In this document: positions 2,215 to 23,865 of the stretch, piece after piece | Position numbering within the stretch: position 1 is the first letter of the stretch | How the letters are laid out: each line of letters begins with the position of its first letter | Sequence record: MK373784.1 | Source: Escherichia phage vB_EcoM_MM02 | Reading direction: 5' to 3' (one strand) | DNA length: 64,000 bases | Made by a program: the position numbers and the translations under genes | Notes under the pieces: generated by a model | What the model was told of the DNA's origin: nothing | Seen by the model: only the letters and a program-made list of their open reading frames with translations | Database searches by the model: none

Positions 2215-2226
2215 ATTTTTCTCTCA

Positions 2227-2427: not shown

Positions 2428-2519
2428 AATATTCTCTTCAGTAGATTCCTAGGGCACTATTACTAAAGACTGTATAATCTATCATCTTATGTGTAATAGT
2501 GCCTCAGGCGATTCAGGAT

Positions 2520-3620: not shown

Positions 3621-3635
3621 AATTAAGCCTTATTA

Positions 3636-3664
3636 AAATTAAAATGAAGCTCCCGAAGGAGCTT
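3636..3664 (-). terminator. hairpin with UUCG loop and U-rich tail at the end of gene 39
   Basis: aagctcc cgaa ggagctt overlapping the gene 39 stop; followed on the minus strand by CAUUUUAAUUUU. Confidence 0.4.
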
Positions 3665-5480: not shown

Positions 5481-5543
5481 GTTGTCTCCTCGTTATGAAG
5501 GTATTCTATCATCCGAAATCTAAAGCAAAAAGGGCCGAAGCCC

Positions 5544-5966
5544 TTATTTAAATTTAATTTTCTGAAGTGCATCAATTGCAGCCAAACGCCCTTGTTCACT
5601 TTTAACTGTAATGACCACATCACCTGATACGATCACCGAACCATCAACAAATTCTATAGAGCCTTTTTTGAAATCTACGGCTGTATCTGATTCAGGAACT
5701 TCTTCAAAGAATTTAAATTCTGCACCGTAAATTAGAATATCACCTTGCATACTAATGATTGTACGTCCAGGTCCATCGGTTTCAGCGGCAATCATTGAAA
5801 CACCATAACCAATCATCTCTTCTACAATAAAATCTCTTGATAATAAAACTGTATGCAGAGTAGTGTTAAGACGTTTACCAGTCGTATTAAGAATTCTCAA
5901 GAAATTATCTTCCTGTCCTTTGATAATACGATATTTCTTACCAACTTCAAAACCTTTAAAAGCCAT
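5544..5966 (-). CDS. hypothetical protein
   Basis: 140-aa ORF, co-directional, tightly packed. Confidence 0.4.
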   Translation of the reverse strand: MAFKGFEVGKKYRIIKGQEDNFLRILNTTGKRLNTTLHTVLLSRDFIVEEMIGYGVSMIAAETDGPGRTIISMQGDILIYGAEFKFFEEVPESDTAVDFKKGSIEFVDGSVIVSGDVVITVKSEQGRLAAIDALQKIKFK

Positions 5967-5968
5967 AA

Positions 5969-6148
5969 TTAACCCTTCTTAAGTAAGTCGTAAAAACCAC
6001 CGTTCACATGTTTAGGAGCAGAAACCCGACGAGTAGACAGACGATGACATTCAGGGCAAACATCGTTTTCTCGTTCAGAAATTCTTTTAATTTTTTCATA
6101 TTCATGACCACAATCTTCAGATTGACATTTATAGTCGTATAACGGCAT
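5969..6148 (-). CDS. FmdB-family zinc-ribbon protein (59 aa; not in supplied ORF track)
   Basis: Hand translation: [59 protein letters not shown]; MPxYxYxC..CGH..E start and CxxC...CxxC are typical of FmdB-type zinc ribbons; start overlaps upstream stop (TAATG). Confidence 0.45.
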   Translation of the reverse strand: MPLYDYKCQSEDCGHEYEKIKRISERENDVCPECHRLSTRRVSAPKHVNGGFYDLLKKG

Positions 6149-6579
6149 TATTGTTCCTTAAAGTGAGCTTTCAACATTTGATACAAAGACCATGCCTGGT
6201 CGTTATTTTCGATAGTAATCGTCATCACCGGAAATTCAGACAATTCATCAAGTTCACCAGAATCTTGCTCTTCGGACGCTTGATATGGATTTCCAACTTC
6301 GTCAAAGAATTCTGCTTCATTCGTGGAGAGCCAGATAAAGTTTTCATCAAGGATATCACCGCCTGTTGCGTATCCAACCGTGCCAGTAGATGTCACAATT
6401 TTAGTAGGACGACCAAGATGGTCAACATCTAATACTTTAAATGGTTCCATGCCAAGACGTCGTGCATAAATCCCATTATCAGTGTGGTCTTTAATAAACT
6501 CTTCTTGGGCACGTTTATCTTTAAATTGGTACCATGAGTTAACGCGGAATTTATTAGCCATTAGTAAGTTTCCTTCCAA
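6148..6579 (-). CDS. hypothetical protein
   Basis: 143-aa ORF. Confidence 0.4.
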
Positions 6580-6833
6580 TAAGTTGTACCATTTTCAGTG
6601 ATTTCACGGAAGATACCATAGATAGGCATTTCATCGCCGAGTTTTTCGTAAACGTAAACCACTTCAGTGTAGCATAAAAATTCAGTCCAGTTTTTCTGTA
6701 CAACAACTAAATCAGGATTAAACAGAACATCTTCAAACTCATCGATGTTTGAATCAGTAGTTACGTTTTTAATGATTTGACGTTTCATAATATTCTCCTC
6801 TTGTTTTGATAGGTCTATAGTATCATAGACCAT
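6561..6833 (-). CDS. hypothetical protein
   Basis: 90-aa ORF; promoter-like element just upstream (approx. 6800-6850). Confidence 0.35.
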
Positions 6834-6845
6834 AGTTGTTGTACA

Positions 6846-7370
6846 TCATTTTAGCAAAATAAAATCAACTTGTTCTGCCAATGAACGTCTAAACATTAAT
6901 TGACAACTTCCGAGGATGAAATCAGGTGCTTCATAGACCGCGATGTAGTATCCTTTAGCTTTCAAGAGTTCAACATCCACCTGGTCATCAAACCATGCAT
7001 AAACCGCGTCAACACTTTCAAATCCAAAATAGAACCCTTGAGCCCAATCTTCACTCAATTCAAATGCGTGCTCAATTCTATAGTATCTTAAGATATTTTG
7101 TTCAAGGAGTTTGTCTTCATTTACTGTAGGACGATTAGGGACATTATAGTTGTCGCCGTGATGGTAGAAGTTACCTGAGATTATTCCATGTTTATCAAGG
7201 AACTCCCATGTTTCTTCAGAGTTGTCGGTGCCCGACCAACCGTATGGCGAACGAGGTTCTTTATTCCAAGAGGTTTCCCAAATTCTGACGGCTTTACCGT
7301 CTTCGATAGCAATTCCTGGTAATGATTCACGTTGAGTACAAAAACTACGTTCTACGCGGTAAACTAACAT
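6846..7370 (-). CDS. hypothetical protein
   Basis: 174-aa ORF; GAGGAG RBS and promoter cassette upstream. Confidence 0.4.
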   Translation of the reverse strand: MLVYRVERSFCTQRESLPGIAIEDGKAVRIWETSWNKEPRSPYGWSGTDNSEETWEFLDKHGIISGNFYHHGDNYNVPNRPTVNEDKLLEQNILRYYRIEHAFELSEDWAQGFYFGFESVDAVYAWFDDQVDVELLKAKGYYIAVYEAPDFILGSCQLMFRRSLAEQVDFILLK

Positions 7371-7394
7371 ATTATTCTCCTCTGGTTGATATGG

Positions 7395-7425
7395 TTATAA
7401 TATCAAAACCAGAGGAGAAGTAAAC
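7395..7425 (-). promoter_or_regulatory. sigma70-like early promoter (GTTTAC, 17 bp, TATTAT) inside an inverted repeat
   Basis: Reverse complement of gtaaac at about 7420-7425 and tataata at about 7396-7402; 9-bp inverted repeat (cctctggtt / aaccagagg) flanks the -10 and overlaps the GAGGAG RBS. Confidence 0.45.
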
Positions 7426-7429
7426 TACT

Positions 7430-7849
7430 TTATGCAAAAGATGCTTGGCTATATCCTTTGATTTGGAATTCAGGAACTACCATGAACTGTCCGGCGAAAA
7501 CGATGTTATAAAGCTTAACACCATCTTCAACCCATTGGTCTGAAATAAAACCAGCGACTTGATTCGTTGTCCATGGAGACCCATCAGTTGCGGCAGCAAT
7601 AGTAAATTCATGGTCTTTTACAACTAAAACTGACCTGCACAGTTTCCATTTGAACGCTTTTTCTTCTGGTTCAATGAACTGGCTTGAGACGTAACCAATG
7701 TTACCATTAACATCTCGAACTTTAACTTCGTTACGTCCAAAAACCGGATCACTCACAGAAAGAACTTCAACCAACTTCCCGGCAACTTTAGAGCGAGAAG
7801 CAACAGATACATATACGTAATCACCTGTAGAGAGATTTACAATATTCAT
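7430..7849 (-). CDS. hypothetical protein, member 1 of a tandem paralog triplet
   Basis: 139 aa; C-terminal ...VAGFISDQWVEDGVKLYNIVFAGQFMVVPEF shared with the next two ORFs. Confidence 0.5.
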   Translation of the reverse strand: MNIVNLSTGDYVYVSVASRSKVAGKLVEVLSVSDPVFGRNEVKVRDVNGNIGYVSSQFIEPEEKAFKWKLCRSVLVVKDHEFTIAAATDGSPWTTNQVAGFISDQWVEDGVKLYNIVFAGQFMVVPEFQIKGYSQASFA

Positions 7850-7858
7850 AATAATTCC

Positions 7859-8323
7859 TTAAGCTTTACGAGGAGACACATAGCGAGTGATTTCAGATTC
7901 TTTAACAACTCGGAAGTCACCTAAGAATACGATATTGTATAACTTTTCACCATCTTCAACCCATTGGTCGCTAATGAAGCCACACATAGTACCAGTTTTG
8001 CTTGGATAACCGTATTCATCGATGAAGTCAAATTCTTTATCAGTCTGGAATTCAACACCTTTACACAAGGCCCATTTGAACTGTGTAGTAGGCTCAACGA
8101 TATCGCTTGAAGCAAAGTGGGCACTTACACGAGTTTCCAAGAATTTAGGACTTACATAGGCGAACTGAGTTTCAGTTTTTCCAGAACTGGGAATGATTCG
8201 AACTTTAACTTCTTTAATACGGCCTATGCCATTAGTACGAAGTCCTACCACTTCAACCAGCTTTCCTGCAGCTTTAGAACGAGACGCTGTCGATACACGT
8301 TTAATTTCACCAATATTAATCAT
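7859..8323 (-). CDS. hypothetical protein, member 2 of a tandem paralog triplet
   Basis: 154 aa; C-terminal ...CGFISDQWVEDGEKLYNIVFLGDFRVV; N-terminal ...SRSKAAGKLVEV like member 1. Confidence 0.5.
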   Translation of the reverse strand: MINIGEIKRVSTASRSKAAGKLVEVVGLRTNGIGRIKEVKVRIIPSSGKTETQFAYVSPKFLETRVSAHFASSDIVEPTTQFKWALCKGVEFQTDKEFDFIDEYGYPSKTGTMCGFISDQWVEDGEKLYNIVFLGDFRVVKESEITRYVSPRKA

Positions 8324-8354
8324 ATTTTTTTCTCTCTTTGTTTAAGTTGAATTC

Positions 8355-8384
8355 ATTATACTCCATCCATCCTTGGATGTAAAA
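8355..8384 (-). promoter_or_regulatory. early-promoter cassette, variant copy of the attatactcca...ccttgg...gtaaa repeat
   Basis: attatactccatccatccttggatgtaaaa; -10 TATAAT and -35-like TTTTAC on the minus strand. Confidence 0.4.
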
Positions 8385-8386
8385 TA

Positions 8387-8881
8387 TTAATTAAGAATAT
8401 TAACTACTGCACTACGTGGAACTACACTAAAATCACCTGCGTGAACAACGTTCAGAAGTTCAACACCGTCTTCAATCCACTGATCAGTTACCCATCCACT
8501 CACTGGACCTGCGAATGGACGTCGAATTGAAACAGCTTTACACAACAAATCAGTAGGCTCAATAGGCTTAATCAGAGTACCGTACATACAAGCGATATCC
8601 ATATCAATACAGATGTCTTTAACGGGTTCTACTTCTTCAATCAACAATTCAAAGTCAGTGCTTGGAAGGGCGGTAGTAGAAATTGTACCGTGTGAATTTT
8701 TAATTTCTAAGAATAACCAAGGGCCTTCAGCTTGTTTGATGAAGTTAACAATAGTGAAACTATTACCTTGAGTGGCACCTAAAATTTCACAAAACTTTTC
8801 ATAAGCTCGCACTGAAGCACCGTACCAGTTGATTTGTTTTTCGTCTTTCAGGATGTAAGTAGCCGTAGTATTGATATTCAT
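8387..8881 (-). CDS. hypothetical protein, member 3 of a tandem paralog triplet
   Basis: 164 aa; C-terminal ...SGWVTDQWIEDGVELLNVVHAGDFSVVP. Confidence 0.5.
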   Translation of the reverse strand: MNINTTATYILKDEKQINWYGASVRAYEKFCEILGATQGNSFTIVNFIKQAEGPWLFLEIKNSHGTISTTALPSTDFELLIEEVEPVKDICIDMDIACMYGTLIKPIEPTDLLCKAVSIRRPFAGPVSGWVTDQWIEDGVELLNVVHAGDFSVVPRSAVVNILN

Positions 8882-8912
8882 AATGTTTTTCCTGTTTGGT
8901 TAAGATAGAAAG

Positions 8913-8942
8913 ATTATACTCCAACCATCCTTGGTTGTAAAC
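8913..8942 (-). promoter_or_regulatory. early-promoter cassette, repeat copy (GTTTAC, 18 bp, TATAAT)
   Basis: attatactccaaccatccttggttgtaaac; spacer contains palindrome CAACCA/TGGTTG. Confidence 0.5.
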
Positions 8943-8947
8943 CGGTT

Positions 8948-9625
8948 TTATCGCTGTTTTACACTTAACGGGTCAGGATTCTCAGGGACATCTTCAAGGC
9001 CAAGCGCATAACGCTGAGCATATTTTAACATCAAAATATCTTTAGCACAATCATGAATACTATCATGGGCAACGAATCCTTTTAGCGTACCCATCGGTAA
9101 TGGACACATACTTAATCCTCGTGTCAACGAGTAAGCTTCGATTGCCGTACGAATATCACGTTGAGCCCAGAATTTAACCGGTTCTAATTTATCAGTATCA
9201 ATATCTGGTTCAAGAACACCTTCAACACGATAGAGGTCACGAATCAAATCGACCAAGATCGGGAAGTCAAAGCTCATACCACGGCACCACATCTGTGATT
9301 TCCATTGGTCAACTTTATTAGCTCGACAATAATCTAAAAAGATTTTAATGCCTTCAAGCGTAGTGACATCGTCTTCAGACGGGGCCAAGTTTTTACGTGC
9401 TTCTGCTGATTGTTCTTTCCACCATTTCATAGTGGATTTAGCGAAAACTCGCTTCCCTTTCTGAGAAGCTAAATTAAATTTAATTCGCTTACCTCGTTGA
9501 ACAAGTTCTTCAAATGATTCAACAACTTCAGGGTCGGAATTATATGCAATAACCGCAAGGTCAATAACAGCCGCTTTTGATGTATTGCCGAATGTTTCAA
9601 AATCTATAATAACATCAGTGCTCAT
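8948..9625 (-). CDS. dexA: exonuclease A (DnaQ-like 3'-5' exonuclease)
   Basis: 225 aa; IIDFETFG Exo-I (DxE) motif; size and position as T4 dexA, adjacent to dda. Confidence 0.7.
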   Translation of the reverse strand: MSTDVIIDFETFGNTSKAAVIDLAVIAYNSDPEVVESFEELVQRGKRIKFNLASQKGKRVFAKSTMKWWKEQSAEARKNLAPSEDDVTTLEGIKIFLDYCRANKVDQWKSQMWCRGMSFDFPILVDLIRDLYRVEGVLEPDIDTDKLEPVKFWAQRDIRTAIEAYSLTRGLSMCPLPMGTLKGFVAHDSIHDCAKDILMLKYAQRYALGLEDVPENPDPLSVKQR

Positions 9626-9634
9626 AATTTTCTC

Positions 9635-10948
9635 TCAAATAAAATGGACGTCAAAACGACCACGAGTTGTGCCGACATACAATAACTGTTTAGCTAATTC
9701 TGAATCGGCATAATGGATACACGGTGTATAAACAAAGGCTGTGTCAACAGACATACCCTGGGCCTTATGGAAGGTTGATACAGGTAGTGCCTTCACCTTA
9801 GTGAACATACGTTTAGCATCCCAGAATTCGCTCCATGGAGCTTTACCACCTTTATTCCAGAATTTGTATGTTTCTGCGGTCTTAGCCAAAAACAAATTGA
9901 ATTTATAAAGCTCTTCTTCAGAAGAAATAACCTTTATATCTTCGCGGATGTATTCTTCATCATCCCCATATGTTTCTACTGTAAGATTCCAGTATCGTAT
10001 CATATATTCGCCCGAAACACCACGTGCTTTAACGAATGTAGACGTTTCTACAGCATCTCGAATACGAACGAATTGCCCGTTATTGAAAAGCATTTCGGTC
10101 ATATTTTTACCATCTAGCTTATATGTCTTAGTAAATGGCTCTTGTAGAACAATGACTTCGTCTTTAATAAATGGTTTTTCTGTTTCAAGAAGTTTTCGGC
10201 GAATAATTGAATTTAACTTGTCCACCGACTTATTTGTGAATGCCATCATTCGATTTTCGAAAAGGTCTTCAGGAGTTTTAACGACGTTAAAATAGTTCAT
10301 CATATACGATTTAAGGTCTGTATATCCGTGAACACCGTGTCCATCAACTACTTTATCGTAAATCCATTTGCCATTACGAATATCAGTCGCAACATCAATA
10401 ATTGGTGCATTGCTACGTTTAACTTCTGTAAGGTTGCATTGCACAAAGTCTTTGTGAGTGAAGAAAGGACTTAGATACGCAGTTGATTCGCCTGGGTCTA
10501 CCGGACGAATCTGGCATCGGTCGCCGATTCCAATTACTGTACACCATTTAGGGATACTAGCTAACATTATTTTAAACAGAGAACGGTCGCACATTGACGC
10601 TTCATCAAATAACAGTACACGACACAAGGCTAAGTCGGGAACCTTTTTCTGTTCAAACAATACGTTTTCTTCGTATGTAGTTGGGTTGATTTTAAGAATG
10701 CTATGAATAGTCGATGCTTCTTGACCCGCGAGTTTGCTTAGAACCTTTTTAGCAGCATGTGTAGGGGCTGCTAAAATAATACCTGATTCTCCTGAAGAAA
10801 TAAGAGCTTCAACAATAAATCTAGTAAGGGTTGTTTTACCTGTACCAGCCGGTCCATTAATAGTTACATGATGTTTCTTTTCTTTAATAGCTTCCATAAC
10901 AACGTTGAAGGCGTTTTTCTGGCCTTCAGTCAAATCATCAAATGTCAT
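9635..10948 (-). CDS. dda: Dda SF1B DNA helicase
   Basis: 437 aa; Walker A TINGPAGTGKTT; size and synteny as T4 Dda. Confidence 0.85.
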   Translation of the reverse strand: MTFDDLTEGQKNAFNVVMEAIKEKKHHVTINGPAGTGKTTLTRFIVEALISSGESGIILAAPTHAAKKVLSKLAGQEASTIHSILKINPTTYEENVLFEQKKVPDLALCRVLLFDEASMCDRSLFKIMLASIPKWCTVIGIGDRCQIRPVDPGESTAYLSPFFTHKDFVQCNLTEVKRSNAPIIDVATDIRNGKWIYDKVVDGHGVHGYTDLKSYMMNYFNVVKTPEDLFENRMMAFTNKSVDKLNSIIRRKLLETEKPFIKDEVIVLQEPFTKTYKLDGKNMTEMLFNNGQFVRIRDAVETSTFVKARGVSGEYMIRYWNLTVETYGDDEEYIREDIKVISSEEELYKFNLFLAKTAETYKFWNKGGKAPWSEFWDAKRMFTKVKALPVSTFHKAQGMSVDTAFVYTPCIHYADSELAKQLLYVGTTRGRFDVHFI

Positions 10949-11256
10949 CGTAAAGTCCCTGCAATTGGAATACTAACAATACGGCCTGTGTCCAGGATTC
11001 GTTGATACAATCTTTGCGTCTCCGCATCTAGTTTAATGTGTTTCATTTCAAGCTTATTAAACCAGAACTTACGCGGAGTTTCGACCATTCTTAGAACTCC
11101 CATTTTTAAATCTGTTTTATACTGTGTTTTCAAAGTATCGAAAACTTTATCTGCAATATCCTTTCTAAAAAATACTGCAGGACGATGCTCATCAAGTGGA
11201 ACCGGGACAGTAAATCCTTCCATATCTCGATAAACTATTGCATATACATAAACCAT
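10945..11256 (-). CDS. hypothetical protein (dda.1 position)
   Basis: 103-aa ORF overlapping dda start by 4 nt. Confidence 0.4.
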   Translation of the reverse strand: MVYVYAIVYRDMEGFTVPVPLDEHRPAVFFRKDIADKVFDTLKTQYKTDLKMGVLRMVETPRKFWFNKLEMKHIKLDAETQRLYQRILDTGRIVSIPIAGTLR

Positions 11257-11258
11257 AA

Positions 11259-12005
11259 TTAACCTTTAATCAGTTGGAATAATGATGCGCTAAGTGGTAA
11301 GCCACGTTTCAATTTTAATTTACCAATGAAACCAATCTTTTCAAAACGTTGCAGACCTTGGATAACTTTATCATATGTATCGAAAAGCGATTCAGCGTCA
11401 GTTAATTTAGTTTTAGTTTTCCAGTCAGAGCCTTTAAGAAGAACGTTGAGTTTAGTAAGTTCATGGCCTTCTGCTTGATGTGAGCCATTAATGCGTGCTT
11501 TCAAAGCAACAATTCTAAGTTTAGATTCGTTAGATAAAGGTTGATTTTTCATCATGTTCGCCATATGCTTAACACGATTTTCACGTTTTGCTCGGATTTT
11601 TAAAATAGTATCATAAACCTTTTTAATTTGGGCCCATTTCTTCTCGTCGAGATTAAGTTTCTCTACTTTACGGGCAGAAGGATTAGCGATACGTCTTGCA
11701 ATGGCATCACGTTTCACAATAAGTTCTTCTAATGTTAAATCAGAACGAGCCGTGTTATATTTTTTCTTAACTGGGATAACATTACCTTTAATGTAGCCGA
11801 TATCGTTATTAAAACGTTCTAAGGATAATTTCTCACCTTCAACAGAGTTATTAAAAGATTCACCTGAGTAAGCGCAGACCTTTTGATCAAGAATGTTTTT
11901 AAGGTAATTAAAGTCTAAGTTAAAATCCTTAGAGCGTCTCTTCGCAGAAGCTCTGGTGTGGTCAAGACGACGATTGATTTTGTTAATTTTATTATTTGAT
12001 AACAT
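11259..12005 (-). CDS. hypothetical basic protein (srd position)
   Basis: 248 aa, Lys/Arg-rich; sits where T4 has srd between dda and modA; no motif recognised. Confidence 0.4.
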   Translation of the reverse strand: MLSNNKINKINRRLDHTRASAKRRSKDFNLDFNYLKNILDQKVCAYSGESFNNSVEGEKLSLERFNNDIGYIKGNVIPVKKKYNTARSDLTLEELIVKRDAIARRIANPSARKVEKLNLDEKKWAQIKKVYDTILKIRAKRENRVKHMANMMKNQPLSNESKLRIVALKARINGSHQAEGHELTKLNVLLKGSDWKTKTKLTDAESLFDTYDKVIQGLQRFEKIGFIGKLKLKRGLPLSASLFQLIKG

Positions 12006-12054
12006 AATATTTTCCTCTGTCTTACGGACGTTAGGTCATTTAGCTGATAAGTCT

Positions 12055-12083
12055 ATAATATCATGCCCTCAGGTAGTGTACAC
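12055..12083 (-). promoter_or_regulatory. sigma70-like early promoter (GTGTAC, 17 bp, TATTAT)
   Basis: gataagtctataatatcatgccctcaggtagtgtacac, about 45 nt upstream of the 11259..12005 start. Confidence 0.4.
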
Positions 12084-12157
12084 TCTTTTTTCGTAAAATG
12101 CTTTAATTTTTTATGTGTTATAATGGTTCTGAGTTCCATCCGGTTATTCCAATTCAG

Positions 12158-12766
12158 TCAGTAACTGACAATAGACAGATTCCAGATTGTATAACGTCCA
12201 TCTTGAATAATAGAATCTACACGCAGTGTAGTCCCTATAGGGAGCATAAATTCACATTCGTCGGATATAAGTCTAGCATTAGACCGTCTTGTCGCTTCAG
12301 GGAAAGCTCCATTGAACTCACAAGATGGCGCAGCCAGAATCATGTTAAGCATATGTTCACGGAAGTTGAAAGCAAATGGTGCATCTTTGATGCAGAACAT
12401 ATTAAATGTTCCGTAAAAATTATACGAAGCAAAGTTACGTGCTACACCGAACACTGGGCTGAAGCTCATTACTCTGTCAAATTTAATAATACTATCAATG
12501 CCTTTATCATCAAGTGTGGCCATAGTTTTCTTAGAGATTCCACGATACATTGTCTCAGGAACAGAAGACGTCCAATTTCTACGAACGATTGAACTTAACT
12601 CCTGTTGAATACAGTCTGGCTTGTTTTCCATACACTGCCACAGTACACTTTGTTCAATGTCGCTGAATTGACTATCAATTTCGTACTGCAATACATCTTG
12701 ATATTCGGGGTTTTGAGCACGACGAACCATTTCTTCAATTTCACACTCGTTATACGGCATAAACAT
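12158..12766 (-). CDS. ADP-ribosyltransferase, ModA/ModB family
   Basis: 202 aa; R-S-ExE-like elements (YRGIS..., ...SDECEF); paralog of next ORF; size and position as T4 modA/modB. Confidence 0.6.
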   Translation of the reverse strand: MFMPYNECEIEEMVRRAQNPEYQDVLQYEIDSQFSDIEQSVLWQCMENKPDCIQQELSSIVRRNWTSSVPETMYRGISKKTMATLDDKGIDSIIKFDRVMSFSPVFGVARNFASYNFYGTFNMFCIKDAPFAFNFREHMLNMILAAPSCEFNGAFPEATRRSNARLISDECEFMLPIGTTLRVDSIIQDGRYTIWNLSIVSY

Positions 12767-12823
12767 TTAGGTTTCTCCTGTGGTTGATAAAGGTATAGTA
12801 TCATCATCGGAAGAGTTTGTACA

Positions 12824-13405
12824 CTAAAAATTCAACATTTTCAAATGAATGATTTTGTATAATCGAGATAAAGGGTCATATTCTAAGTCTTCAATTTCCA
12901 CAATCTCAAATCTAGAGATACCTGAGACCATGTACTCTTGTTCAGATTCAATCATATCTAGGACGTCAACACGCGTTTCTTCCATAACATGCTTAGGGTT
13001 CTTTCCGGCGAGTACAATGTTAACCATGTTTTGGTAGTAATCAAAAATGAATGGAGCATTCCTGAGACTAAGAATAGTGTACGTCTGATATTCCCATCTC
13101 CCGGAGAATTGACGAGCTGTACTGAAATCAGTTGTGAACGATGTTACTCGTCCAGGAGACCAATGGCATCCAACAGAAAGAAGGGAAAGACGTTCTACTT
13201 CTTCTGGAGTTACACCACGGTAGAGTTCTACTGGTACTGTAGAAGTCATATGCTTACGAACAAGATGGTCTAATTCATAGTGGAAATCCGGGTCTTCCTT
13301 AGAATCGGTGCAAGCCCAGAGAATGTTTTGTTCTTGGCGGGTGAATTTACTATCAATCAGATTTGTTAGATATTCACGTTCTTGAAGTTCAGATTGACAT
13401 GTCAT
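12824..13405 (-). CDS. ADP-ribosyltransferase, ModA/ModB family (paralog)
   Basis: 193 aa; LYRGVTPEE, FTTDFSTA, ESEQEYM; clear paralogy with 12158..12766. Confidence 0.6.
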   Translation of the reverse strand: MTCQSELQEREYLTNLIDSKFTRQEQNILWACTDSKEDPDFHYELDHLVRKHMTSTVPVELYRGVTPEEVERLSLLSVGCHWSPGRVTSFTTDFSTARQFSGRWEYQTYTILSLRNAPFIFDYYQNMVNIVLAGKNPKHVMEETRVDVLDMIESEQEYMVSGISRFEIVEIEDLEYDPLSRLYKIIHLKMLNF

Positions 13406-13802
13406 GATAGACCTCCATTTAAAGATAAGCCTATCATAACACGAGAGGAGGGAATGTAAACTACTTTTTAAGCTTTCCTACTAAAGGACCATCAGGACCA
13501 GGTTGTTCTAACATGAATAAGGATGCTTTAAAAAGCAATGTCAACCCTTTCACCATTCGATACCATGTCTCAAAGTCTTTTTCCTTGATTTCTAGTAAGA
13601 ATTTCTCTTTCAATTTCTCTTTCATTTCCAAGGGCTCCATGGTGGAGGGTCATCATAATAAGAGGCGAGGTCTTTCAGGACATCTAATGGTAAACTAAAG
13701 CCATGACGCTGTATAATACTATCTAGTTCATCAACAAGTTCACTACGATGCACTTTAGGAGCCTCAACTTCAGGCTCGTCAAACATACTCATAAGGTCCA
13801 TA

Positions 13803-14267
13803 CTATTCACCTAAATAAAAACTAGGCTGCTCGGAGAATGTTTCTAGCGTTACACCTTTTGTCTTAAAAAATTTCCAAATAGCTCGTTGCAAATGGATTA
13901 AATCTGCTAATGATGTAATAAAGTATTTTTTGGCAAAATACGTATGGTCTCGCTTTTCAAACAGGTCTAAACGCTTTTCAGGATTCACATAAACGGCATT
14001 TTCTGTAGATTCATACCCTAAGTCCTTTATGCCTTCTTCAAGACTAAACGGAGAATTTTTAGAATGAGTAATAGCTCCAACTCGCTCTACACGAATTTTG
14101 TAACCTTTAGGAATCTGCAATTTGCAGAATTCTTCTACGATATATTGCGGATTATTTAGACTTTTGTTAATGAGAATAGCTATTTCTAGTGGAGTCTTAT
14201 CTTCTACTGGTATATGTTTAAACGACTTGGCTTCAAGCAAATACATTTTAAATAACATAGCATCCAT
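13803..14267 (-). CDS. hypothetical protein
   Basis: 154-aa ORF. Confidence 0.4.
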   Translation of the reverse strand: MDAMLFKMYLLEAKSFKHIPVEDKTPLEIAILINKSLNNPQYIVEEFCKLQIPKGYKIRVERVGAITHSKNSPFSLEEGIKDLGYESTENAVYVNPEKRLDLFEKRDHTYFAKKYFITSLADLIHLQRAIWKFFKTKGVTLETFSEQPSFYLGE

Positions 14268-14442
14268 TATAATTTCCTCGATGGTTCACCCATATAAAGT
14301 TTTACAATACGTTCGCCTTCATCTTCGACGAGCTTTTCTTCATGTTTCTGGAATTCTTTAGCCATATTCTCTTCAAGAACATCCAGCCAATCTTCTGGAC
14401 CGACACCATCGTCCCAGCTTTTAAACCATTTAACTATCTTGT

Positions 14443-14691
14443 TCATTCGCAGCTCCCTGAGCTTGAACCACAATCAGAATAACTTAACCCAGAATCACCA
14501 GGCCAAGACGATACGTATGAATGATTATAACTTGAAGAGCTTGAAGCATTAACCTGTTTTGTTTTTGGACGAACAACTTCTTCCATCATTCCGTCACCGA
14601 TATATTCCCAACTTTTTTCGTGTGTATCAGGAATAGGCATCATACCTTCGCCTGGTTTAACAGCAAACAACTTCTTCAGTATCGTAAGCAT
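14443..14691 (-). CDS. hypothetical protein (start trimmed to ATG with GAGGAA RBS)
   Basis: Track ORF 14443..14766; internal ATG at about 14691 has an RBS. Confidence 0.3.
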   Translation of the reverse strand: MLTILKKLFAVKPGEGMMPIPDTHEKSWEYIGDGMMEEVVRPKTKQVNASSSSSYNHSYVSSWPGDSGLSYSDCGSSSGSCE

Positions 14692-14884
14692 TAATTGTTC
14701 CTCGAACAAAACGAACACCACCGTCATCCCAGCGGATTTCGGCATTAAATTTGACGTCTTCACCATCCATCATGAATGAGTGTACGACTACATCATCGTA
14801 ATATCCAAGACCGTATTTCAACGAAACTTCTTGAGCAATCAAAGCACCTAATGTGTTATTAGGTTTAATCCAACGATTTAACAT
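14657..14884 (-). CDS. hypothetical protein (start trimmed to ATG with GAGGAG RBS)
   Basis: Track ORF 14657..14953 begins inside the soc terminator; internal ATG at about 14884 has a strong RBS. Confidence 0.35.
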   Translation of the reverse strand: MLNRWIKPNNTLGALIAQEVSLKYGLGYYDDVVVHSFMMDGEDVKFNAEIRWDDGGVRFVRGTINAYDTEEVVCC

Positions 14885-14951
14885 ATTGTTCTCCTCTTGA
14901 GTAAGTAAGAATATCTTAACACAGGTTTTAGTGGTTGTAAACTGTAGAAAC

Positions 14952-14978
14952 AAAAAAAAAGGAATCCCGAAGGATTCC
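14952..14978 (-). terminator. rho-independent terminator downstream of soc (UUCG-loop hairpin + U9)
   Basis: Plus strand aaaaaaaaa ggaatcc cgaa ggattcc; on the minus strand a 7-bp stem with UUCG loop followed by nine U. Confidence 0.6.
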
Positions 14979-14987
14979 TTAAATTAT

Positions 14988-15224
14988 TTAACCACTTACT
15001 GGTGTAGGGGTAAACATTGCAGCGTTCTTAGTTTTCCAGTCAGCTGCATCAGAAACTACAGTAGAATAAGCTGCCTTTTCTGATGGAAAGATTTGGTAAT
15101 GAGAATCTGCAATCCGATGTTCGTTTGAATAAATCTCAAACGGCACAGAAACTTCCATACCTTTAACTTCTTTACCTTCACCAGCAGGATGCGTAAAGGT
15201 TTTGATGTTTACATAACCACCCAT
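14988..15224 (-). CDS. soc: small outer capsid protein Soc
   Basis: 78 aa; GYVNIKTF...HYQIFPSEKAAYSTV matches my memory of T4 Soc; late-promoter motif upstream, terminator downstream. Confidence 0.8.
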   Translation of the reverse strand: MGGYVNIKTFTHPAGEGKEVKGMEVSVPFEIYSNEHRIADSHYQIFPSEKAAYSTVVSDAADWKTKNAAMFTPTPVSG

Positions 15225-15255
15225 AATTAACTCCTTTGTTGTTTAATTACAGGTG

Positions 15256-15263
15256 TATTTATA
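15256..15263 (-). promoter_or_regulatory. T4-type late promoter motif (TATAAATA) upstream of soc
   Basis: Plus strand reads tatttata, the reverse complement of TATAAATA, about 30 nt upstream of the soc start. Confidence 0.5.
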
Positions 15264-15269
15264 ACTTAA

Positions 15270-15791
15270 TCAGTAACCATTATCCTGGCGTTCAAAGTTG
15301 TGTTGGTTTTTCAAGTAGTAAAGTTTGAAGATTTCTTCAGCAGAAAGACCCAGACCTTGGAACATGTTCAGAACGAAGTGCAGAATATCAATCATTTCGA
15401 ATTTAATTTCGAGCTGGTCTTCAGGAGACAGTTCATCAATACGACGATTACGATATTCAGCATGTTGTGCTTTCCATGGCTTCCATACACTGCTGGCAGC
15501 TTTTTCACCGTTGGACATACCACCAAGTGAAGTCAGCAGTTCACGGAATTCATCATCAATATAATCTTTCTGATTACGCAGCCAATCAACAACATCGCCA
15601 GCAGTAGCCAATTCATCAGGATGTTTGTTATGTTCAGGCTTGTCATTTGCCAGACGAACCTGTAAAGATTTCTGCATATCAAGCATTACCTGCAGTGGGT
15701 CTTTATCTTCGTGAATCAGAGCATTAAAATAAGCTTCTTCTGCTTTATCAACACCAGAAATAAGTTGTGAACATTCGTTAAAGTGCGCCAT
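15270..15791 (-). CDS. 56: dCTP pyrophosphatase (MazG-like), gene 56
   Basis: Track start is a TTG 5 codons upstream; ATG at about 15791 has RBS AAAGGAAAAATAATG; about 173 aa; position between soc and 61 as in T4. Confidence 0.65.
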   Translation of the reverse strand: MAHFNECSQLISGVDKAEEAYFNALIHEDKDPLQVMLDMQKSLQVRLANDKPEHNKHPDELATAGDVVDWLRNQKDYIDDEFRELLTSLGGMSNGEKAASSVWKPWKAQHAEYRNRRIDELSPEDQLEIKFEMIDILHFVLNMFQGLGLSAEEIFKLYYLKNQHNFERQDNGY

Positions 15792-15880
15792 TATTTTTCC
15801 TTTCAATTCAGTATAAGAGAGTTTAATTCTAACATTAATTTTATAAAGCGTAATAAATAATAGGTAACTAAGGAGATATT

Positions 15881-16078
15881 ATGTTTAAACTTCCATCGTT
15901 AATCAACGCTATTAAAGGCAATAAAAAGAAAACTGCTATCGCTGCAATAGTTGTAGGTGGCATTATTTCATGGAACTTCGGGATTGCACCATTGTTAGTT
16001 GCCCATGGTATTATAGTTCCTTCTGTTCCATTGGATACTGTAGTTGATTTGGCCTTTGCTATTATAGGGCTTGTTTAA
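15881..16078 (+). CDS. small hydrophobic protein (plus strand)
   Basis: 65 aa; strong AGGAG RBS 6 nt before ATG; predicted membrane helices; only convincing plus-strand gene in the window. Confidence 0.4.
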   Translation: MFKLPSLINAIKGNKKKTAIAAIVVGGIISWNFGIAPLLVAHGIIVPSVPLDTVVDLAFAIIGLV

Positions 16079-17097
16079 ATCTTCGAATAACGAGATAATC
16101 TCATTTTAGCATGCAACCCACTTGAAATATTCTGTTTCATATATTCTAAAATTTCTTGTGGTGTTGCATTTTCTTTCATTACCATATCATTCACATCCTT
16201 TGATCTCCATGGAGCTCGGTCCCAGAACATGACACGTTCGCCTGCATCAACTAATCGCTTCATGCGAGCTATAGTATCCGGATGCCTAGGTTCATTATCC
16301 ATTACCCATACCCGACGTTCTTTAAATGGTACCACATCTAAATCTATTGAGCCGCCTGTAATAGCGATTGCATTGGGTATGAATAAACTATCAATAGGGC
16401 CTTCCATTACCCAGACGTCTCCTTCCTTAACACGTTCAACACCATAAATTTTTGTTGCAGACTCAAACGCTTTAATAGTGATATATTTCTGAGGAGCATC
16501 TTTACGAAGTGCACGTCCTTGGAATGACTCGGCCTTCCCATCTTTATTAAAAATAGGAATAACTAAACGTGGTTCGGGAATCTCTTTCTTATACGTACCA
16601 GGTTGAATCTTGTTGACCAATTTGGGCCATTCTAATGTGAACCATAATCTGTTCCATGATTCTTTAGGAATGCATCTAGACTTAACATATTTAACAATAG
16701 GATGCTCTTCAGGCAACTTGTCCAGACGAGAACAAGACGGCAAAGAATTTATAGTCTTTTTCTCCGGTTCTGGTTTATGTTCAGGAACCTTTTCAATCTT
16801 TGGTTCCATTCTAGCTTTTTCTTTACGAACTTCCATTAGATATTCGCGATAAAGCTCTTCATCATACTCTTTTAAGTATCCGGAAATTGTATTGTGGTAT
16901 TGACAGTTATAGCAATGTACATTACCAGGAGTACCGCCATAATACCATCCGCGAGCTTTCATTGCATCTGTCTGGGAGTCGCCACAAACTGGACATCGAA
17001 ATGTTAATTTAAATGTGCTTGAATTATTGATTTGTCTAAAACGAGGTAGGTGAGAAAACGCACGATAAGCAAATTCATTATCTATCCATTCAGCCAT
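16075..17097 (-). CDS. 61: DNA primase, gene 61
   Basis: 340 aa; zinc ribbon CPVCGD...CYNCQYH; TOPRIM-like region; size and position as T4 gp61. Confidence 0.8.
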   Translation of the reverse strand: MAEWIDNEFAYRAFSHLPRFRQINNSSTFKLTFRCPVCGDSQTDAMKARGWYYGGTPGNVHCYNCQYHNTISGYLKEYDEELYREYLMEVRKEKARMEPKIEKVPEHKPEPEKKTINSLPSCSRLDKLPEEHPIVKYVKSRCIPKESWNRLWFTLEWPKLVNKIQPGTYKKEIPEPRLVIPIFNKDGKAESFQGRALRKDAPQKYITIKAFESATKIYGVERVKEGDVWVMEGPIDSLFIPNAIAITGGSIDLDVVPFKERRVWVMDNEPRHPDTIARMKRLVDAGERVMFWDRAPWRSKDVNDMVMKENATPQEILEYMKQNISSGLHAKMRLSRYSKI

Positions 17098-17136
17098 AGT
17101 ATTCTCCAGAGGCCTTAAATTAATAAGGCCATCTTA

Positions 17137-17631
17137 TCACAACTTATTAATATTTACTTTAATTCGCTTTCTTTTCTTGGAAGGAATTTGTTCGGGACCT
17201 TTATTTACAATTGCACCTGTAGTAGTTCCTGATGCAATAGCTTGAGGACTGCCACCCGAATCGCCAGCAACCATATCCTCAAATAAAGGGAGCTCTTTAA
17301 ATATTTCTTTCTGTTGTTCTTCTGTAATGTTATAGCGTGAAGCTACAGCACTCCAGGCAGACATCATTGAGGCCATTCCATTAAGACCTGGAACAGTGCT
17401 CATCATTCGCTTCATTGAACGAACTGAAGCATGAAAAGGTGTATAAGCCGCTTTCTCTTCAGGAGTAGAAGGACGTTTAAGAACACTTCCACGTTCATCG
17501 ATGATTTTGGCTTCGTATGCTTTCCATTCGGTAAAAGGTTTTTGCATTAGTCGAATAAACTTATATGCGTAAACAGAATCTATTGCAGTGTTAATAATAC
17601 CCATAGGTACCTCCTGAGTATATTTAATCAA
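17137..17631 (-). CDS. hypothetical protein (61.1 position)
   Basis: 164-aa ORF. Confidence 0.4.
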   Translation of the reverse strand: MIKYTQEVPMGIINTAIDSVYAYKFIRLMQKPFTEWKAYEAKIIDERGSVLKRPSTPEEKAAYTPFHASVRSMKRMMSTVPGLNGMASMMSAWSAVASRYNITEEQQKEIFKELPLFEDMVAGDSGGSPQAIASGTTTGAIVNKGPEQIPSKKRKRIKVNINKL

Positions 17632-17821
17632 TTACAAAGATTGCTTTGTCACCATTTATATCTGTGACTTCATATGTAGTGCCTTCATACTGTGGAATAT
17701 TCCAAATTACACCATCATTAGCTTTTACGCTAATATGGCATTGGTGTTTTGAAACAACTTCATAATCTTCAAAACTTGTAAAAACACTAATTTTAGAACC
17801 AGTGCAAATTGCAGTAGTCAT
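17624..17821 (-). CDS. hypothetical protein
   Basis: 65-aa ORF. Confidence 0.3.
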   Translation of the reverse strand: MTTAICTGSKISVFTSFEDYEVVSKHQCHISVKANDGVIWNIPQYEGTTYEVTDINGDKAIFVID

Positions 17822-17822
17822 T

Positions 17823-18482
17823 TTAACCTCGATTCATAAATGCATTAAATATTTGGTCATCAACAGAAATTTCTAATTCGACTTCAATTGCTTCAGCCTT
17901 TTCTTCAGGTGGTAATTCGTATCCACACACTACAATTTTTTCATCGATATCAAAATATATAGAAGCAATACGATTAATGTTATTTTCAGTTAAGTCCAAA
18001 TCAACATCAACATCTTTTTGGCCTACACTTAGAGGATAACTAATACGGGTTATTTTATTATCTTTAACAAAGAGTCCACCAACATACTCTGTACTACGTT
18101 TGAAGTTTACACGTTTCCGAATTGAAAGATATGATACATCTTTACCGTGAGCTCGGCTCATAGGACATAATGAATAGCTAGAATAAGAGATGTCAAATCC
18201 TACACCTTCAATATGAGCCAACGTGTCATGATTAAACCAATTATAATCATATGCCAAATCCATTATATTGTAATATGTGAAAGGCACAGGATTAACATCA
18301 TATGTTGTACCTTTAAAATCTGCCCAGGCAACGATTTCGTTATCTTTAACAATTACAAAAATTACACCAATATGGTATCCGTTATTATTTTCATTCGGCG
18401 TTATATTATAACATTGTGCATTAGGAAATTTACCATATTTAAATGGCGCATTTTTGTGCATATAATAAATCATATTATTCAC
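17823..18482 (-). CDS. hypothetical protein (61.2 position)
   Basis: 219-aa ORF; synteny only. Confidence 0.4.
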   Translation of the reverse strand: MNNMIYYMHKNAPFKYGKFPNAQCYNITPNENNNGYHIGVIFVIVKDNEIVAWADFKGTTYDVNPVPFTYYNIMDLAYDYNWFNHDTLAHIEGVGFDISYSSYSLCPMSRAHGKDVSYLSIRKRVNFKRSTEYVGGLFVKDNKITRISYPLSVGQKDVDVDLDLTENNINRIASIYFDIDEKIVVCGYELPPEEKAEAIEVELEISVDDQIFNAFMNRG

Positions 18483-18768
18483 CTGTGATTTCGGTTACGA
18501 TATCTTTGTTATCGAAATTAGGGTCACAATACAAAACATAGTTGTACTGCATGATACCGCCAGACTTAAGTTGTTCAACAACTTTATTAACCATATTAGG
18601 ACGGTCTCGTTTAGTGATGTTCATGATATCAGAGAAGATTTGTTGTTCAACATCTTCTTGATTTGCAGTCATTGACCACTCACAGAGGTCTTTATCATAA
18701 CCTGCCGTAACTGGAGCCGGTGCACATGATACTGCAAGTAAGATTGCTGCCAATGATAACTTTTTCAT
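18475..18768 (-). CDS. sp: spackle-like periplasmic protein Sp
   Basis: 97 aa; signal peptide MKKLSLAAILLAVSCAPAPVTA; GYDKDLCEWSM motif matches my memory of T4 Sp; same size. Confidence 0.6.
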   Translation of the reverse strand: MKKLSLAAILLAVSCAPAPVTAGYDKDLCEWSMTANQEDVEQQIFSDIMNITKRDRPNMVNKVVEQLKSGGIMQYNYVLYCDPNFDNKDIVTEITGE

Positions 18769-18831
18769 TTTAACTCCTTAGTTGATTTGATAGGACTACT
18801 ATACTATAGTCCATCTATAATGTAAACAAGT

Positions 18832-19080
18832 TTATTCTTTTTCGCGAATAATAATTACTTGTTGAGGCTGCTGAGCTGATTTCTTTTCGGCAACGATAGA
18901 CCAAATTAAAGTTCCAATCCAACCAACCATCGTCCAGTTAAAGAGTAAAGATACAAAGAAGATTGCTGTTGTGCTTTTTGTGCCACGAATAAGTGCGATT
19001 ACCCAAGGCAACATGTAAATGATGATTGAACCAATACCTGCGATTAAAACTGCTACTGAACTAACTACGAATAATTCCAT
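18832..19080 (-). CDS. superinfection-immunity (Imm) family membrane protein
   Basis: 82 aa, two TM helices; YMLPWVIALIRG...AIFFVSLLFNWTMVGWIGTLIWSI resembles the Imm superinfection-exclusion family. Confidence 0.5.
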   Translation of the reverse strand: MELFVVSSVAVLIAGIGSIIIYMLPWVIALIRGTKSTTAIFFVSLLFNWTMVGWIGTLIWSIVAEKKSAQQPQQVIIIREKE

Positions 19081-19141
19081 GTTAATTTCCTCTTGATTTG
19101 TTATGTTTATAGTATCTTGTTTTAACTTTGGCGTAAACCAA

Positions 19142-19510
19142 TTAATTAAATTTGTTTAAACGTTCAATACACTGGACATAGTTATTTGCGATTTGTTTCT
19201 GGGTAGGCTCTTTACCAGTGGTTTCAACATAACGAATGAATGCGATTTCAGTAGCCTGTAAGCAATGTTCTTTAACGCGTTGTTCTTTTGATAATGCTAC
19301 AGTATCAGAGTCACGATAACGTTGAGCATGGGCATCAGCTTGAATCATTCGATTACCTACAGTAACCGGGTCTTCCACTTCAACTTTAGGTTGGTCGTAC
19401 TGTTTAACATTCGGATTGTAAATCAATTGGCCAACGTTATTAGGGATAAAGCCATGGGCACCACATCCGGTTAATCCAAATACCATTGCTAAAGCGATTA
19501 ATTTTTTCAT
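19142..19510 (-). CDS. putative lipoprotein
   Basis: 122 aa; signal peptide with lipobox LTGC. Confidence 0.45.
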   Translation of the reverse strand: MKKLIALAMVFGLTGCGAHGFIPNNVGQLIYNPNVKQYDQPKVEVEDPVTVGNRMIQADAHAQRYRDSDTVALSKEQRVKEHCLQATEIAFIRYVETTGKEPTQKQIANNYVQCIERLNKFN

Positions 19511-19570
19511 TTCAATTTCCTCTGTAGTTGATAGAAAGATAGTAACACAGTATGTGGTGCTTGTAAACAG

Positions 19571-19828
19571 CTATTTTAAACTTTTTCGAAATTTGCGTTT
19601 TTCTTGACGAATCTGTCGTTTAGTCGGACGTACAGCAAATTTAACGAAGTCCACTTTGCCGTGTGGAAACTTTTCAGATGCTTCGCAGTCCATCATTAGT
19701 TCCCATCCTTCCAGAATAAGAGCTTTCCATTGTGTAGTTGATGCAAATTCGTATGTTGATGGTTTAAACACAGTTGAATACATATTATCCTCTGAAATCA
19801 GCTTCAAAAACTTTCTCGTCATTAACAA
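19571..19828 (-). CDS. hypothetical protein
   Basis: 85-aa ORF. Confidence 0.35.
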   Translation of the reverse strand: MLMTRKFLKLISEDNMYSTVFKPSTYEFASTTQWKALILEGWELMMDCEASEKFPHGKVDFVKFAVRPTKRQIRQEKRKFRKSLK

Positions 19829-19976
19829 ATGCTTTAACTAATGCTTTGTTCACTTCAGCAAGTTGTACCGTAACCCACTCGATTTCTTCGCGATCACCTG
19901 ATAACATGATATCTTTAGTGAACATCTCACCGCTTTTAAACCAACCGATAAAAGTAACTTTAGTTAATTTGCTCAT
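19785..19976 (-). CDS. dmd: Dmd antitoxin-like protein (inhibitor of host RnlA/LsoA-type toxins)
   Basis: Track ORF trimmed to ATG with GAGG RBS; MSKLTKVTFIGWFKSGEMFTKDI...AEVNKALVKAF matches my memory of T4 Dmd; position before gene 41. Confidence 0.6.
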   Translation of the reverse strand: MSKLTKVTFIGWFKSGEMFTKDIMLSGDREEIEWVTVQLAEVNKALVKAFVNDEKVFEADFRG

Positions 19977-20290
19977 ATTTCCTCGCAAAATGCCCATTCA
20001 GCGTGATAAACTGTAGCGCCTTTAGTATCATTCATTTGAACTACATCTACCGGAGAAATTACTCGATAGAGACGTGGTTCACCTCCATAAGAGCGTGCTG
20101 CTCGTCCTGCATAAATCTTTGCTAAACCGATATCTTCAGTAAAGAATACACGATCCAAGTTTTTCTTACGTCCAGTTTCAGACAGAACTCCTGTTTCTTC
20201 AGGAGGACAAAGCATGTTTTCGATGTTAGCTGAACTACTTGAACCGTGATAAAAAATCTTAAATTCTGCTTTACAATCGATGGTTTTCAT
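19973..20290 (-). CDS. hypothetical protein
   Basis: 105-aa ORF; RBS GGAG lies inside one arm of a 12-bp inverted repeat. Confidence 0.4.
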   Translation of the reverse strand: MKTIDCKAEFKIFYHGSSSSANIENMLCPPEETGVLSETGRKKNLDRVFFTEDIGLAKIYAGRAARSYGGEPRLYRVISPVDVVQMNDTKGATVYHAEWAFCEEI

Positions 20291-20296
20291 TTTGTT

Positions 20297-20345
20297 CTCC
20301 AGTAGTTGATAGGTCTATAATAACACAACTACTGGAGAAGTAAAC
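20297..20345 (-). promoter_or_regulatory. early promoter with -10 in the loop of a perfect 12-bp inverted repeat that includes the downstream RBS
   Basis: Arms ctccagtagttg (about 20297-20308) and caactactggag (about 20326-20337); -10 ataata at about 20317-20322, -35 gtaaac at about 20340-20345 on the minus strand. Confidence 0.5.
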
Positions 20346-20720
20346 TTAAAAACGTAATTTAGATACATCTGCGTTGATTTCGTTTTGGTTTGCGTCGTAT
20401 GCAATTAAACGAACTGCTTTAGATGGGTCATTCAATGCATAGAAATGATGGAACATTGCTCGAACGATATCACCATTTACGAGTTCTACCTGGATAGGAG
20501 AACCTTTTTCGAGTTGGAAATGTTCATAAGCTTTGATGGTTCGTAGATAATCAAGTTTTTGATTTCCAGCTCCAACTATTTGTACGATACGTTTGCCTGT
20601 GTTTTCCATACGAGATACAATAGTTTTAGGAGCAAGAATAACGTAGGTTGCCAGCGGAGAAACTACTTCAACAGTTGTGTTTTCGGTGATTGCAGTAAAA
20701 ATTGCTTGAGACATATTCAT
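20346..20720 (-). CDS. hypothetical protein
   Basis: 124-aa ORF. Confidence 0.4.
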   Translation of the reverse strand: MNMSQAIFTAITENTTVEVVSPLATYVILAPKTIVSRMENTGKRIVQIVGAGNQKLDYLRTIKAYEHFQLEKGSPIQVELVNGDIVRAMFHHFYALNDPSKAVRLIAYDANQNEINADVSKLRF

Positions 20721-20786
20721 AATGTTTTCCTCTTGGTTGGTATAAGTACATCATATCATGCCTAGAGGAAGATGTAAACCCCGAAA

Positions 20787-20807
20787 GGAGACCGAAGTCT
20801 CCTTTTT
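20787..20807. terminator. GC hairpin (ggagac cgaa gtctcc) with T-run, immediately downstream of gene 41
   Basis: T5 tract follows the hairpin on the plus strand; U-rich but interrupted tract on the minus strand; orientation ambiguous. Confidence 0.35.
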
Positions 20808-20808
20808 A

Positions 20809-22251: not shown

Positions 22252-22260
22252 GATAACTCC

Positions 22261-22623
22261 TTAAAAGAATTTAAATTTTTTCTTGGTCCGTTCATTAAAA
22301 GCTTGTTGTACTTGCATTGTAACACATTTTTCAACATGTGGTGCAAGTTCTGCTTTTCTGTCCTGGTCAAGAACTGCAAAGTCCATTACGATTTTACCAT
22401 CAACCCAGTCTAGTTTTGTAATATAGACTATATGATGGGAACCGTCTTCAAGTGTAATCAGAATCTCTTGAATGACATTTTCCATTGCTGAACGGACAAT
22501 TTTAAGAGATTCATTAAACACTCGTTCTTTGCGAATGTCCTCCCCTTCCGAAGAAGGGGATTCATCAACGATTTCTAGATTTAAATCATCGAGATTATTC
22601 ATCGAAATCTTCCATTTCGTCAA
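22261..22623 (-). CDS. hypothetical protein (gene 40 position)
   Basis: 120 aa, between 41 and uvsX as T4 gene 40; no motif. Confidence 0.4.
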   Translation of the reverse strand: MTKWKISMNNLDDLNLEIVDESPSSEGEDIRKERVFNESLKIVRSAMENVIQEILITLEDGSHHIVYITKLDWVDGKIVMDFAVLDQDRKAELAPHVEKCVTMQVQQAFNERTKKKFKFF

Positions 22624-23767: not shown

Positions 23768-23865
23768 TGTATTTTTCCATAGGCATCATTATATTTTACT
23801 CATGTTTAAAAGATAAGATGATTATATACTAAGGGTTATACAGCATTTAAAACTTTAAATGGCTC

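Follow-up and report, generated by a model that had tools for sequence, protein, structure and literature searches.

Within the 64,000-nucleotide stretch of Escherichia phage vB_EcoM_MM02 DNA analyzed here (MK373784.1; the window), the segment 12158-13405 contains exactly two minus-strand open reading frames (ORFs), which we refer to by the lengths of their products as W202 and W193 (Table 1). An earlier note on this DNA had described these as adjacent paralogs, and the two proteins do share 33% amino acid (aa) identity over 147 aa (BLASTP, E 4e-26). Both are Mod-family (ModA/ModB-like) ADP-ribosyltransferases (ARTs) of the R-S-ExE type, with intact catalytic residues and an ART fold. We put at roughly 85% the probability of the reading developed below, in which the locus encodes two early-gene Mod-family ARTs of an RB69-like (Mosigvirus) T4-type phage, and a macro-domain gene located 48 kb away belongs to a separate tk.4/adfM module.

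Table 1. Coordinates of the Mod genes, the promoter-like site and the macro-domain gene in the window.
Feature	Coordinates	Strand	Remarks
W202, Mod-family R-S-ExE mono-ADP-ribosyltransferase, 202 aa	12158..12766	-	T4 modA position, adjoins srd; R75, S101(-F-S103), E170-x-E172
W193, Mod-family R-S-ExE mono-ADP-ribosyltransferase, 193 aa	12824..13405	-	T4 modB position; R63, S89(-F-T91), E155-x-E157
Sigma-70/T4-early-type promoter-like site	13433..13460	-	TTTACA-16 nt-TATGAT with TG, A-run before; upstream of W193
Macro-domain protein, ortholog of T4 Tk.4/AdfM	60662..61159	-	Pfam PF01661 Macro, E 2e-6, 28.2 bits vs cutoff 22

Both proteins match PHROG 832, 'RNA polymerase ADP-ribosylase', at levels well outside chance (E 5e-37 for W202 and 6e-38 for W193), and their similarity to T4 ModA and ModB extends over the full length. 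In BLASTP comparisons W202 is 30% identical to T4 ModB (E 5e-32) and 31% identical to T4 ModA (E 8e-21), and W193 is 38% identical to ModB (E 5e-28) and matches ModA with an E value of 8e-10. All 12 close homolog clusters found in a word-indexed search carry the precomputed label PF26816, with source names such as 'NAD--protein ADP-ribosyltransferase'. Near-identical phages annotate the W202 gene as 'RNA polymerase ADP-ribosylase' and the W193 gene as 'ModB'; the two genes are already known and routinely annotated, and their presence here is an ordinary finding. A Pfam match to DUF6597 scored 13.6 bits against a cutoff of 27 and was discarded as sub-threshold noise. An antisense ORF of 159 aa (12113..12592, plus strand) was likewise rejected, as no plus-strand gene is called there in annotated genomes. 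Isoelectric points and net charges were compared for a ModB-like signature and are uninformative, all of the members being acidic.

The catalytic elements were located in a family alignment of 44 members, each the representative of a 50%-identity cluster. The arginine and ExE elements read Y74-R75-G76 and E170-C-E172-F in W202, and Y62-R63-G64 and E155-Q-E157-Y in W193; the motif serine is S101 in W202, within VMSFS, and S89 in W193, within VTSFTT. R75, G76, E170 and E172 (W202 numbering) are invariant (44/44), the STS-type Ser at S101 is kept in 43 of the 44 members, and the third position of this motif is S or T, also in 43; the W193 residues in the W202 catalytic columns are R63, G64, S89, T91, E155 and E157. 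An alignment restricted to W202, W193, T4 ModA and T4 ModB has invariant columns that include R75-G76, S101, E170 and E172, and this comparison, which the earlier note had proposed as a check, finds the R, S and E catalytic residues all present in both window proteins. The arginine and ExE elements that the note had picked out coincide with invariant columns, but its serine elements do not: the 'FAS' of W202 (residues 112-114) lies in the following helix, the motif serine being S101, and a literal 'STT' is absent from W193, in which the sequence reads TS89FTT.

The secondary structure positions are those expected of an R-S-E (cholera-toxin-like, ARTC) enzyme. The catalytic Arg falls within a predicted strand (residues 72-76 in W202 and 60-64 in W193) corresponding to beta-1, the STS Ser falls within the strand corresponding to beta-2 (100-103 and 88-91 respectively), and at the ARTT (ADP-ribosylating toxin turn-turn) loop both proteins have the E/Q-x-E motif in its ExE form. 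The ExE form is the arginine-specific form of the motif, and the beta-1 Arg binds the NAD+ phosphate. The R75 column of W202 corresponds to T4 ModB R73, and the column of the second Glu to T4 ModA E165; a T4 ModB R73A/G74A mutant is catalytically inactive (PMC10468400), as is T4 ModA E165A (PMC11404850).

AlphaFold2 models built on 44-sequence alignments have predicted local distance difference test (pLDDT) scores of 97.2 for W202 and 94.2 for W193. Each is a single-domain protein of about 200 aa in which the N-terminal region is helical and the core is an R-S-ExE ART, and in the modeled core successive strands carry the Arg and the Ser, with the ExE just before a strand, which is the canonical ART arrangement. 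A Foldseek search of the PDB with the W202 model gives 101 matches at E <= 0.001, and all of the 50 listed are R-S-E type ARTs, among them C3 exoenzyme, XopAI, Tre1, Vis, HopU1, iota/CDTa and Certhrax; the predicted models therefore have the fold of R-S-E mono-ADP-ribosyltransferases. A PDB sequence search with a profile of the four Mod sequences returned nothing significant (the best hit was a glutathione reductase at E 0.14), with a weak XopAI match at the ExE region, and no solved Mod structure was found in the PDB either by sequence or by fold. The bacterial R-S-E ART toxins (C3 exoenzyme, Serratia Tre1, Vibrio Vis, VIP2/iota/CDTa and HopU1) share only 10-18% sequence identity with the Mod proteins, which differ in having an N-terminal helical region of their own and in being intracellular phage early proteins, whereas the toxins are secreted.

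Over the 3.1 kb around the Mod genes, more than 140 sequenced T4-type phages from the RB69-like genus Mosigvirus match the window at 98-99% identity; vB_Eco_mar005P1, JK36 and NBG1 are among the closely matching genomes. Position 1 of the window is rIIA, the same start as in the matching genomes, and the window therefore covers the opening 64 kb of a Mosigvirus genome. The minus-strand gene order is dda, dda.1, srd, W202, W193, several small ORFs and an mrh-like gene (PF24070, 6.6e-38), in agreement with the T4 order dda-dda.1-srd-modA-modB-modA.2-modA.3, such that the tandem Mod genes lie between srd and modA.2/mrh. The ModA/ModB-like family assignment of the earlier note thus stands, on the PHROG 832 and BLASTP matches, the intact residues, the ART fold and the srd-modA-modB-mrh synteny.

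Comparison with the individual T4 proteins reveals both shared and distinguishing features. With T4 ModB (NP_049636) the window proteins share family, size, an N-terminal 'F(T/S)xxEQxxLWxCxxxK' helix motif and the catalytic set R73/S99/E171/E173, which corresponds to R75/S101/E170/E172 in W202 and R63/S89/E155/E157 in W193. ModB is the best T4 match of both proteins and has the same genomic position as W193, but W193 is shorter by 14 aa, without the 'YEDTDGL' that ModB has inserted ahead of the ExE helix. T4 ModA (NP_049635) is in the same length class as W202, each gene immediately precedes srd as transcribed, and the ModA residues R72/S96/E163/E165 align with W202 R75/S101/E170/E172. It differs in that its 31% identity to W202 comes with a lower score than that of ModB (73 as compared to 102 bits), that no supported clade joins it to W202, and that the T4-type ModA sequence is limited to Tequatrovirus.

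The Mod family is small and phage-restricted, as only 62 relatives came out of a profile search run exhaustively over 1.84 billion representative proteins. A relative of W202 is present in 1080 phage records and one of W193 in 1058, with 152 and 136 records respectively at identities of at least 90%. At the modB position there are at least two allelic types in otherwise similar phages, with 51 records at 60-80% identity (KIT01 at 64%) in addition to the 136, and for W202 the next group below the 152 records is at about 57%. These separate identity groups indicate that the Mod genes evolve in discrete, fast-diverging lineages.

The promoter-like site upstream of W193 has 10 of 12 consensus matches and an extended -10 element, and a GGAGG ribosome-binding site (~13412..13416) is situated between it and W193; W202 has its own AGGAG, and these Shine-Dalgarno sequences are strong. 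As judged by its consensus match only, the site fits the T4 early promoters.

By synteny W202 is ModA and W193 is ModB, an assignment made from gene position only and one that the sequences cannot confirm. Several observations weigh against reading the locus as an early Mod pair of the T4 kind. Identity to the characterized T4 enzymes is only 26-38%, and no model in the Pfam-A copy searched or in NCBIfam matches W202 or W193. W202 and T4 ModB are mutual best matches by score (102 bits, as compared to 73 bits with T4 ModA) despite the modA position of W202. In a neighbor-joining (NJ) tree of 32 family members with 100 bootstraps, no node with at least 60% support joins a window protein to a T4 protein, and the deep nodes are unsupported. 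Finally, promoter-like sites are not enriched in the region, with nine found and 8.3 expected from shuffled sequences. The tree is star-like, with 100% support for each of four groups: a W202 clade, W193 together with family member P0013, a T4 ModB clade, and a long branch of T4 ModA with P0027. The best T4 match of W193 is ModB (92 bits, and 42 bits with ModA), yet the best match of ModB in the window is W202. On sequence comparison, neither window protein appears to be closely orthologous to either T4 enzyme, and a one-to-one ModA and ModB labeling of the pair has gene position as its only basis. Because of this conflict and the star-like tree, to assign this phage the RNA polymerase alpha, S1 or RNAylation specificities is to extrapolate from T4.

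It is possible, although we think it rather unlikely, that the Mosigvirus proteins do not match T4 ModA plus ModB in function, both being ModB-like or having diverged to other host targets, and that the T4-type Arg265 modifier is confined to Tequatrovirus. T4-type ModA is present at identities of at least 90% in about 500 phage records and identity then falls abruptly to at most 35% in all other phages, a distribution in line with this proposal, as is the long isolated branch that T4 ModA forms with P0027. The higher ModB scores of both window proteins point in the same direction, as does a tblastn search in which the best match of W202 in Tequatrovirus genomes falls on modB. However, the higher ModB scores may merely reflect faster evolution of the T4 ModA lineage, the lack of support at the deep nodes applies here too, W202 is exactly at the modA location and is itself the best Mosigvirus match of T4 ModA, and there are no known target-determining residues against which to compare. 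It is improbable in the extreme that either gene, or both, is a paralog in decay or without catalytic activity that is kept only as a binding protein: modA and modB are dispensable in T4 in the laboratory (PMC2988021) and the family evolves fast, with about 30% identity between genera, but both ORFs are full length with every R-S-ExE residue present, the structure models are very confident, and each gene is conserved at identities of at least 90%, in 136 to 152 phage records.

The earlier note had also coupled the Mod genes to a macro-domain gene toward the right end of the window, and the macro-domain call itself is sound, the Pfam Macro score being above the cutoff (Table 1). The product is 85% identical to T4 Tk.4 (E 5e-105), matches PHROG 335 (2e-66), and is encoded in the tk-vs interval in the same tk-tk.1-3-tk.4-vs-vs.1-regB arrangement as in T4. 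Three genes away from the macro gene is that for the RegB endoribonuclease (62017..62499, minus strand; PF10715, E 7e-69). In T4, RegB has ribosomal protein S1 as its cofactor, and S1 is the principal target of ModB as well. The listed start of the macro ORF is a TTG at 61159, and T4 Tk.4 aligns from residue 11, a GTG at 61129, which is therefore the probable start and would give a 155-aa product; starting there, the macro gene would share 8 nt with the end of vs.

The macro ORF matches the NCBIfam DarG model (NF048014) with an E value of 3.7e-8 over positions 4-146 of 338, scoring 33 bits against a cutoff of 250, which is accounted for by the absence of the second, C-terminal DarT-binding domain that distinguishes DarG. 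The protein is a macro domain on its own; it is related to DarG but falls outside the DarG equivalog. Its PDB sequence relatives are Bt_1257 (E 8e-11), Poa1p, SCO6735, DarG and TARG1, and of these Bt_1257, SCO6735, DarG and TARG1 belong to the ALC1-like class, the unifying activity of which is reversal of thymidine-linked DNA ADP-ribosylation (PMC9411070). The A1pp/macro domain of the tk.4 orthologs in T4-type phages has been on record since 2006 (PMC1524935). In a 2025 preprint, a transposon screen and a clean knockout found T4 tk.4 to be needed only in DarTG2 hosts, genetic evidence that it is an anti-DarTG2 factor, and the gene was renamed adfM, with the proposal that AdfM removes thymidine-linked ADP-ribose from DNA (10.1101/2025.11.20.689424). 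By extension, the window protein would be a counter-defense hydrolase of the tk.4/adfM kind, predicted to clear phage DNA of the thymidine-linked ADP-ribose that DarT2 adds. The CmdTAC paper makes no link to the T4 macrodomain. Tentatively, Gln94 (in the 165-aa ORF, motif NLYTQF) may match Gln85 of SCO6735, an essential residue there that stands in place of the catalytic Lys of DarG and TARG1. In pairwise comparison Gln94 aligns with a Gln of Bt_1257 only when gap penalties are low, in which case a mobile loop would be five residues shorter, and a partial-sequence PDB query for the residue equivalent to DarG K80/SCO6735 Q85 gave no DarG or TARG1 alignments.

The note had further suggested that this protein is an eraser of the Mod marks, such that W202 and W193 would write ADP-ribose or RNA marks and the macro protein would reverse them in a timed cycle. 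The Mod pair and the macro gene do occur together in one genome, macrodomains in general are ADP-ribose hydrolases, and arginine-specific macrodomains exist, as a separate MavL/DUF4804/Larg1 class (PMC10951314). The macro ORF is not a member of that class, as its PDB relatives are ALC1-like and a Pfam scan at E values up to 0.1 gave only PF01661 Macro and no DUF4804, assuming that this model is in the Pfam copy used. The ALC1-like relatives act on thymidine-ADP-ribose in DNA or on Asp/Glu esters with no arginine activity reported, and there is no evidence of arginine de-ADP-ribosylation for the MacroD, PARG-like or ALC1-like classes (PMC10951314). The mark that T4 ModB leaves is an arginine N-glycoside, which ARH1 removes (PMC10468400). 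The two loci are moreover 48 kb apart in different early-gene clusters, and loss of the close homolog Tk.4/AdfM results in sensitivity to DarTG2, a defense that ADP-ribosylates thymidine in DNA. A functional link between the macro gene and the Mod genes is not supported, the eraser proposal does not hold up against these observations, and we consider the timed cycle highly unlikely; we give just as little credence to a Tk.4/AdfM-type macrodomain that, besides its DarT2 role, also removes Mod-placed arginine-linked ADP-ribose or RNA chains. If it did, T4-type phages would write and erase marks on host RNA polymerase and ribosomal proteins in a timed cycle of their own, and this would be the first ALC1-like macrodomain with arginine activity. 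A milder reading is that the Mosigvirus Mod pair may have host targets different from those of T4 ModA and ModB. The separate tk.4/adfM module remains the reading that we prefer for the macro gene.

Compared with the window, JK45 has an extra annotated gene of ~410 bp after rIIA.1 (at 2520..2930 in JK45; the window region compared is 2215..2520), and a 366-aa ORF is at 2520..3620 in the window and 3023..4123 in JK45, with the downstream window genes about 500 bp earlier. This suggests a small indel difference between genomes that are otherwise 98-99% identical. A cluster of four minus-strand genes (26310..30418) is located between the genes for dCMP hydroxymethylase (25315..26031) and DNA polymerase (30459..33170), and encodes a Peptidase_U32-like protein (392 aa), a 133-aa protein annotated as 'phosphoheptose isomerase' in JK45, a 561-aa NTP_transferase/'GlmU'-like protein, and a 211-aa SIS-domain 'arabinose 5-phosphate isomerase'. 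T4 is not known to have a counterpart of this cluster at that position. RB69-type phages arabinosylate hydroxymethyl-cytosine, and the cluster is probably the sugar-nucleotide pathway for this modification. An Rfam search of the whole window (1..64000, both strands) gave no RNA family at its gathering score.

As inferred from T4, the Mod genes would be transcribed from early promoters by the host RNA polymerase after infection, and the enzymes would bind NAD+ and, given the ExE form, move ADP-ribose onto arginine side chains of host proteins. On the same paradigm the Mod pair would help to redirect host transcription and translation and possibly aid evasion of host defenses. T4 ModB modifies S1, EF-Tu, trigger factor and L2, and attaches NAD-capped RNA ('RNAylation'); modification of Arg265 in RNA polymerase alpha blocks UP-element and activator contacts. 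T4 ModA ADP-ribosylates Arg265 of both alpha subunits, and the targets of T4 ModB are proteins of the translation apparatus that include S1 and L2, both of which are also RNAylated (PMC2988021; PMC10468400). The HIDEN-SEQ preprint flags Alt, plus a ModA ortholog in Bas37, in evasion of Mokosh type I.

Homologs of modA, modB and tk.4 have been recognized in T4-type phages for two decades, and more than 100 genomes near-identical to this one carry these annotations. Some caution in annotation is nonetheless warranted, as phages other than Tequatrovirus receive the labels 'ModA = RNA polymerase ADP-ribosylase' and 'ModB' on the basis of gene position. With identities of ~30-38% to the T4 enzymes and a star-like tree, the targets of the Mosigvirus enzymes and their ability to perform RNAylation are not assignable from T4. 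A comparison of targets across the genera could reveal how quickly the specificities of phage ARTs evolve.

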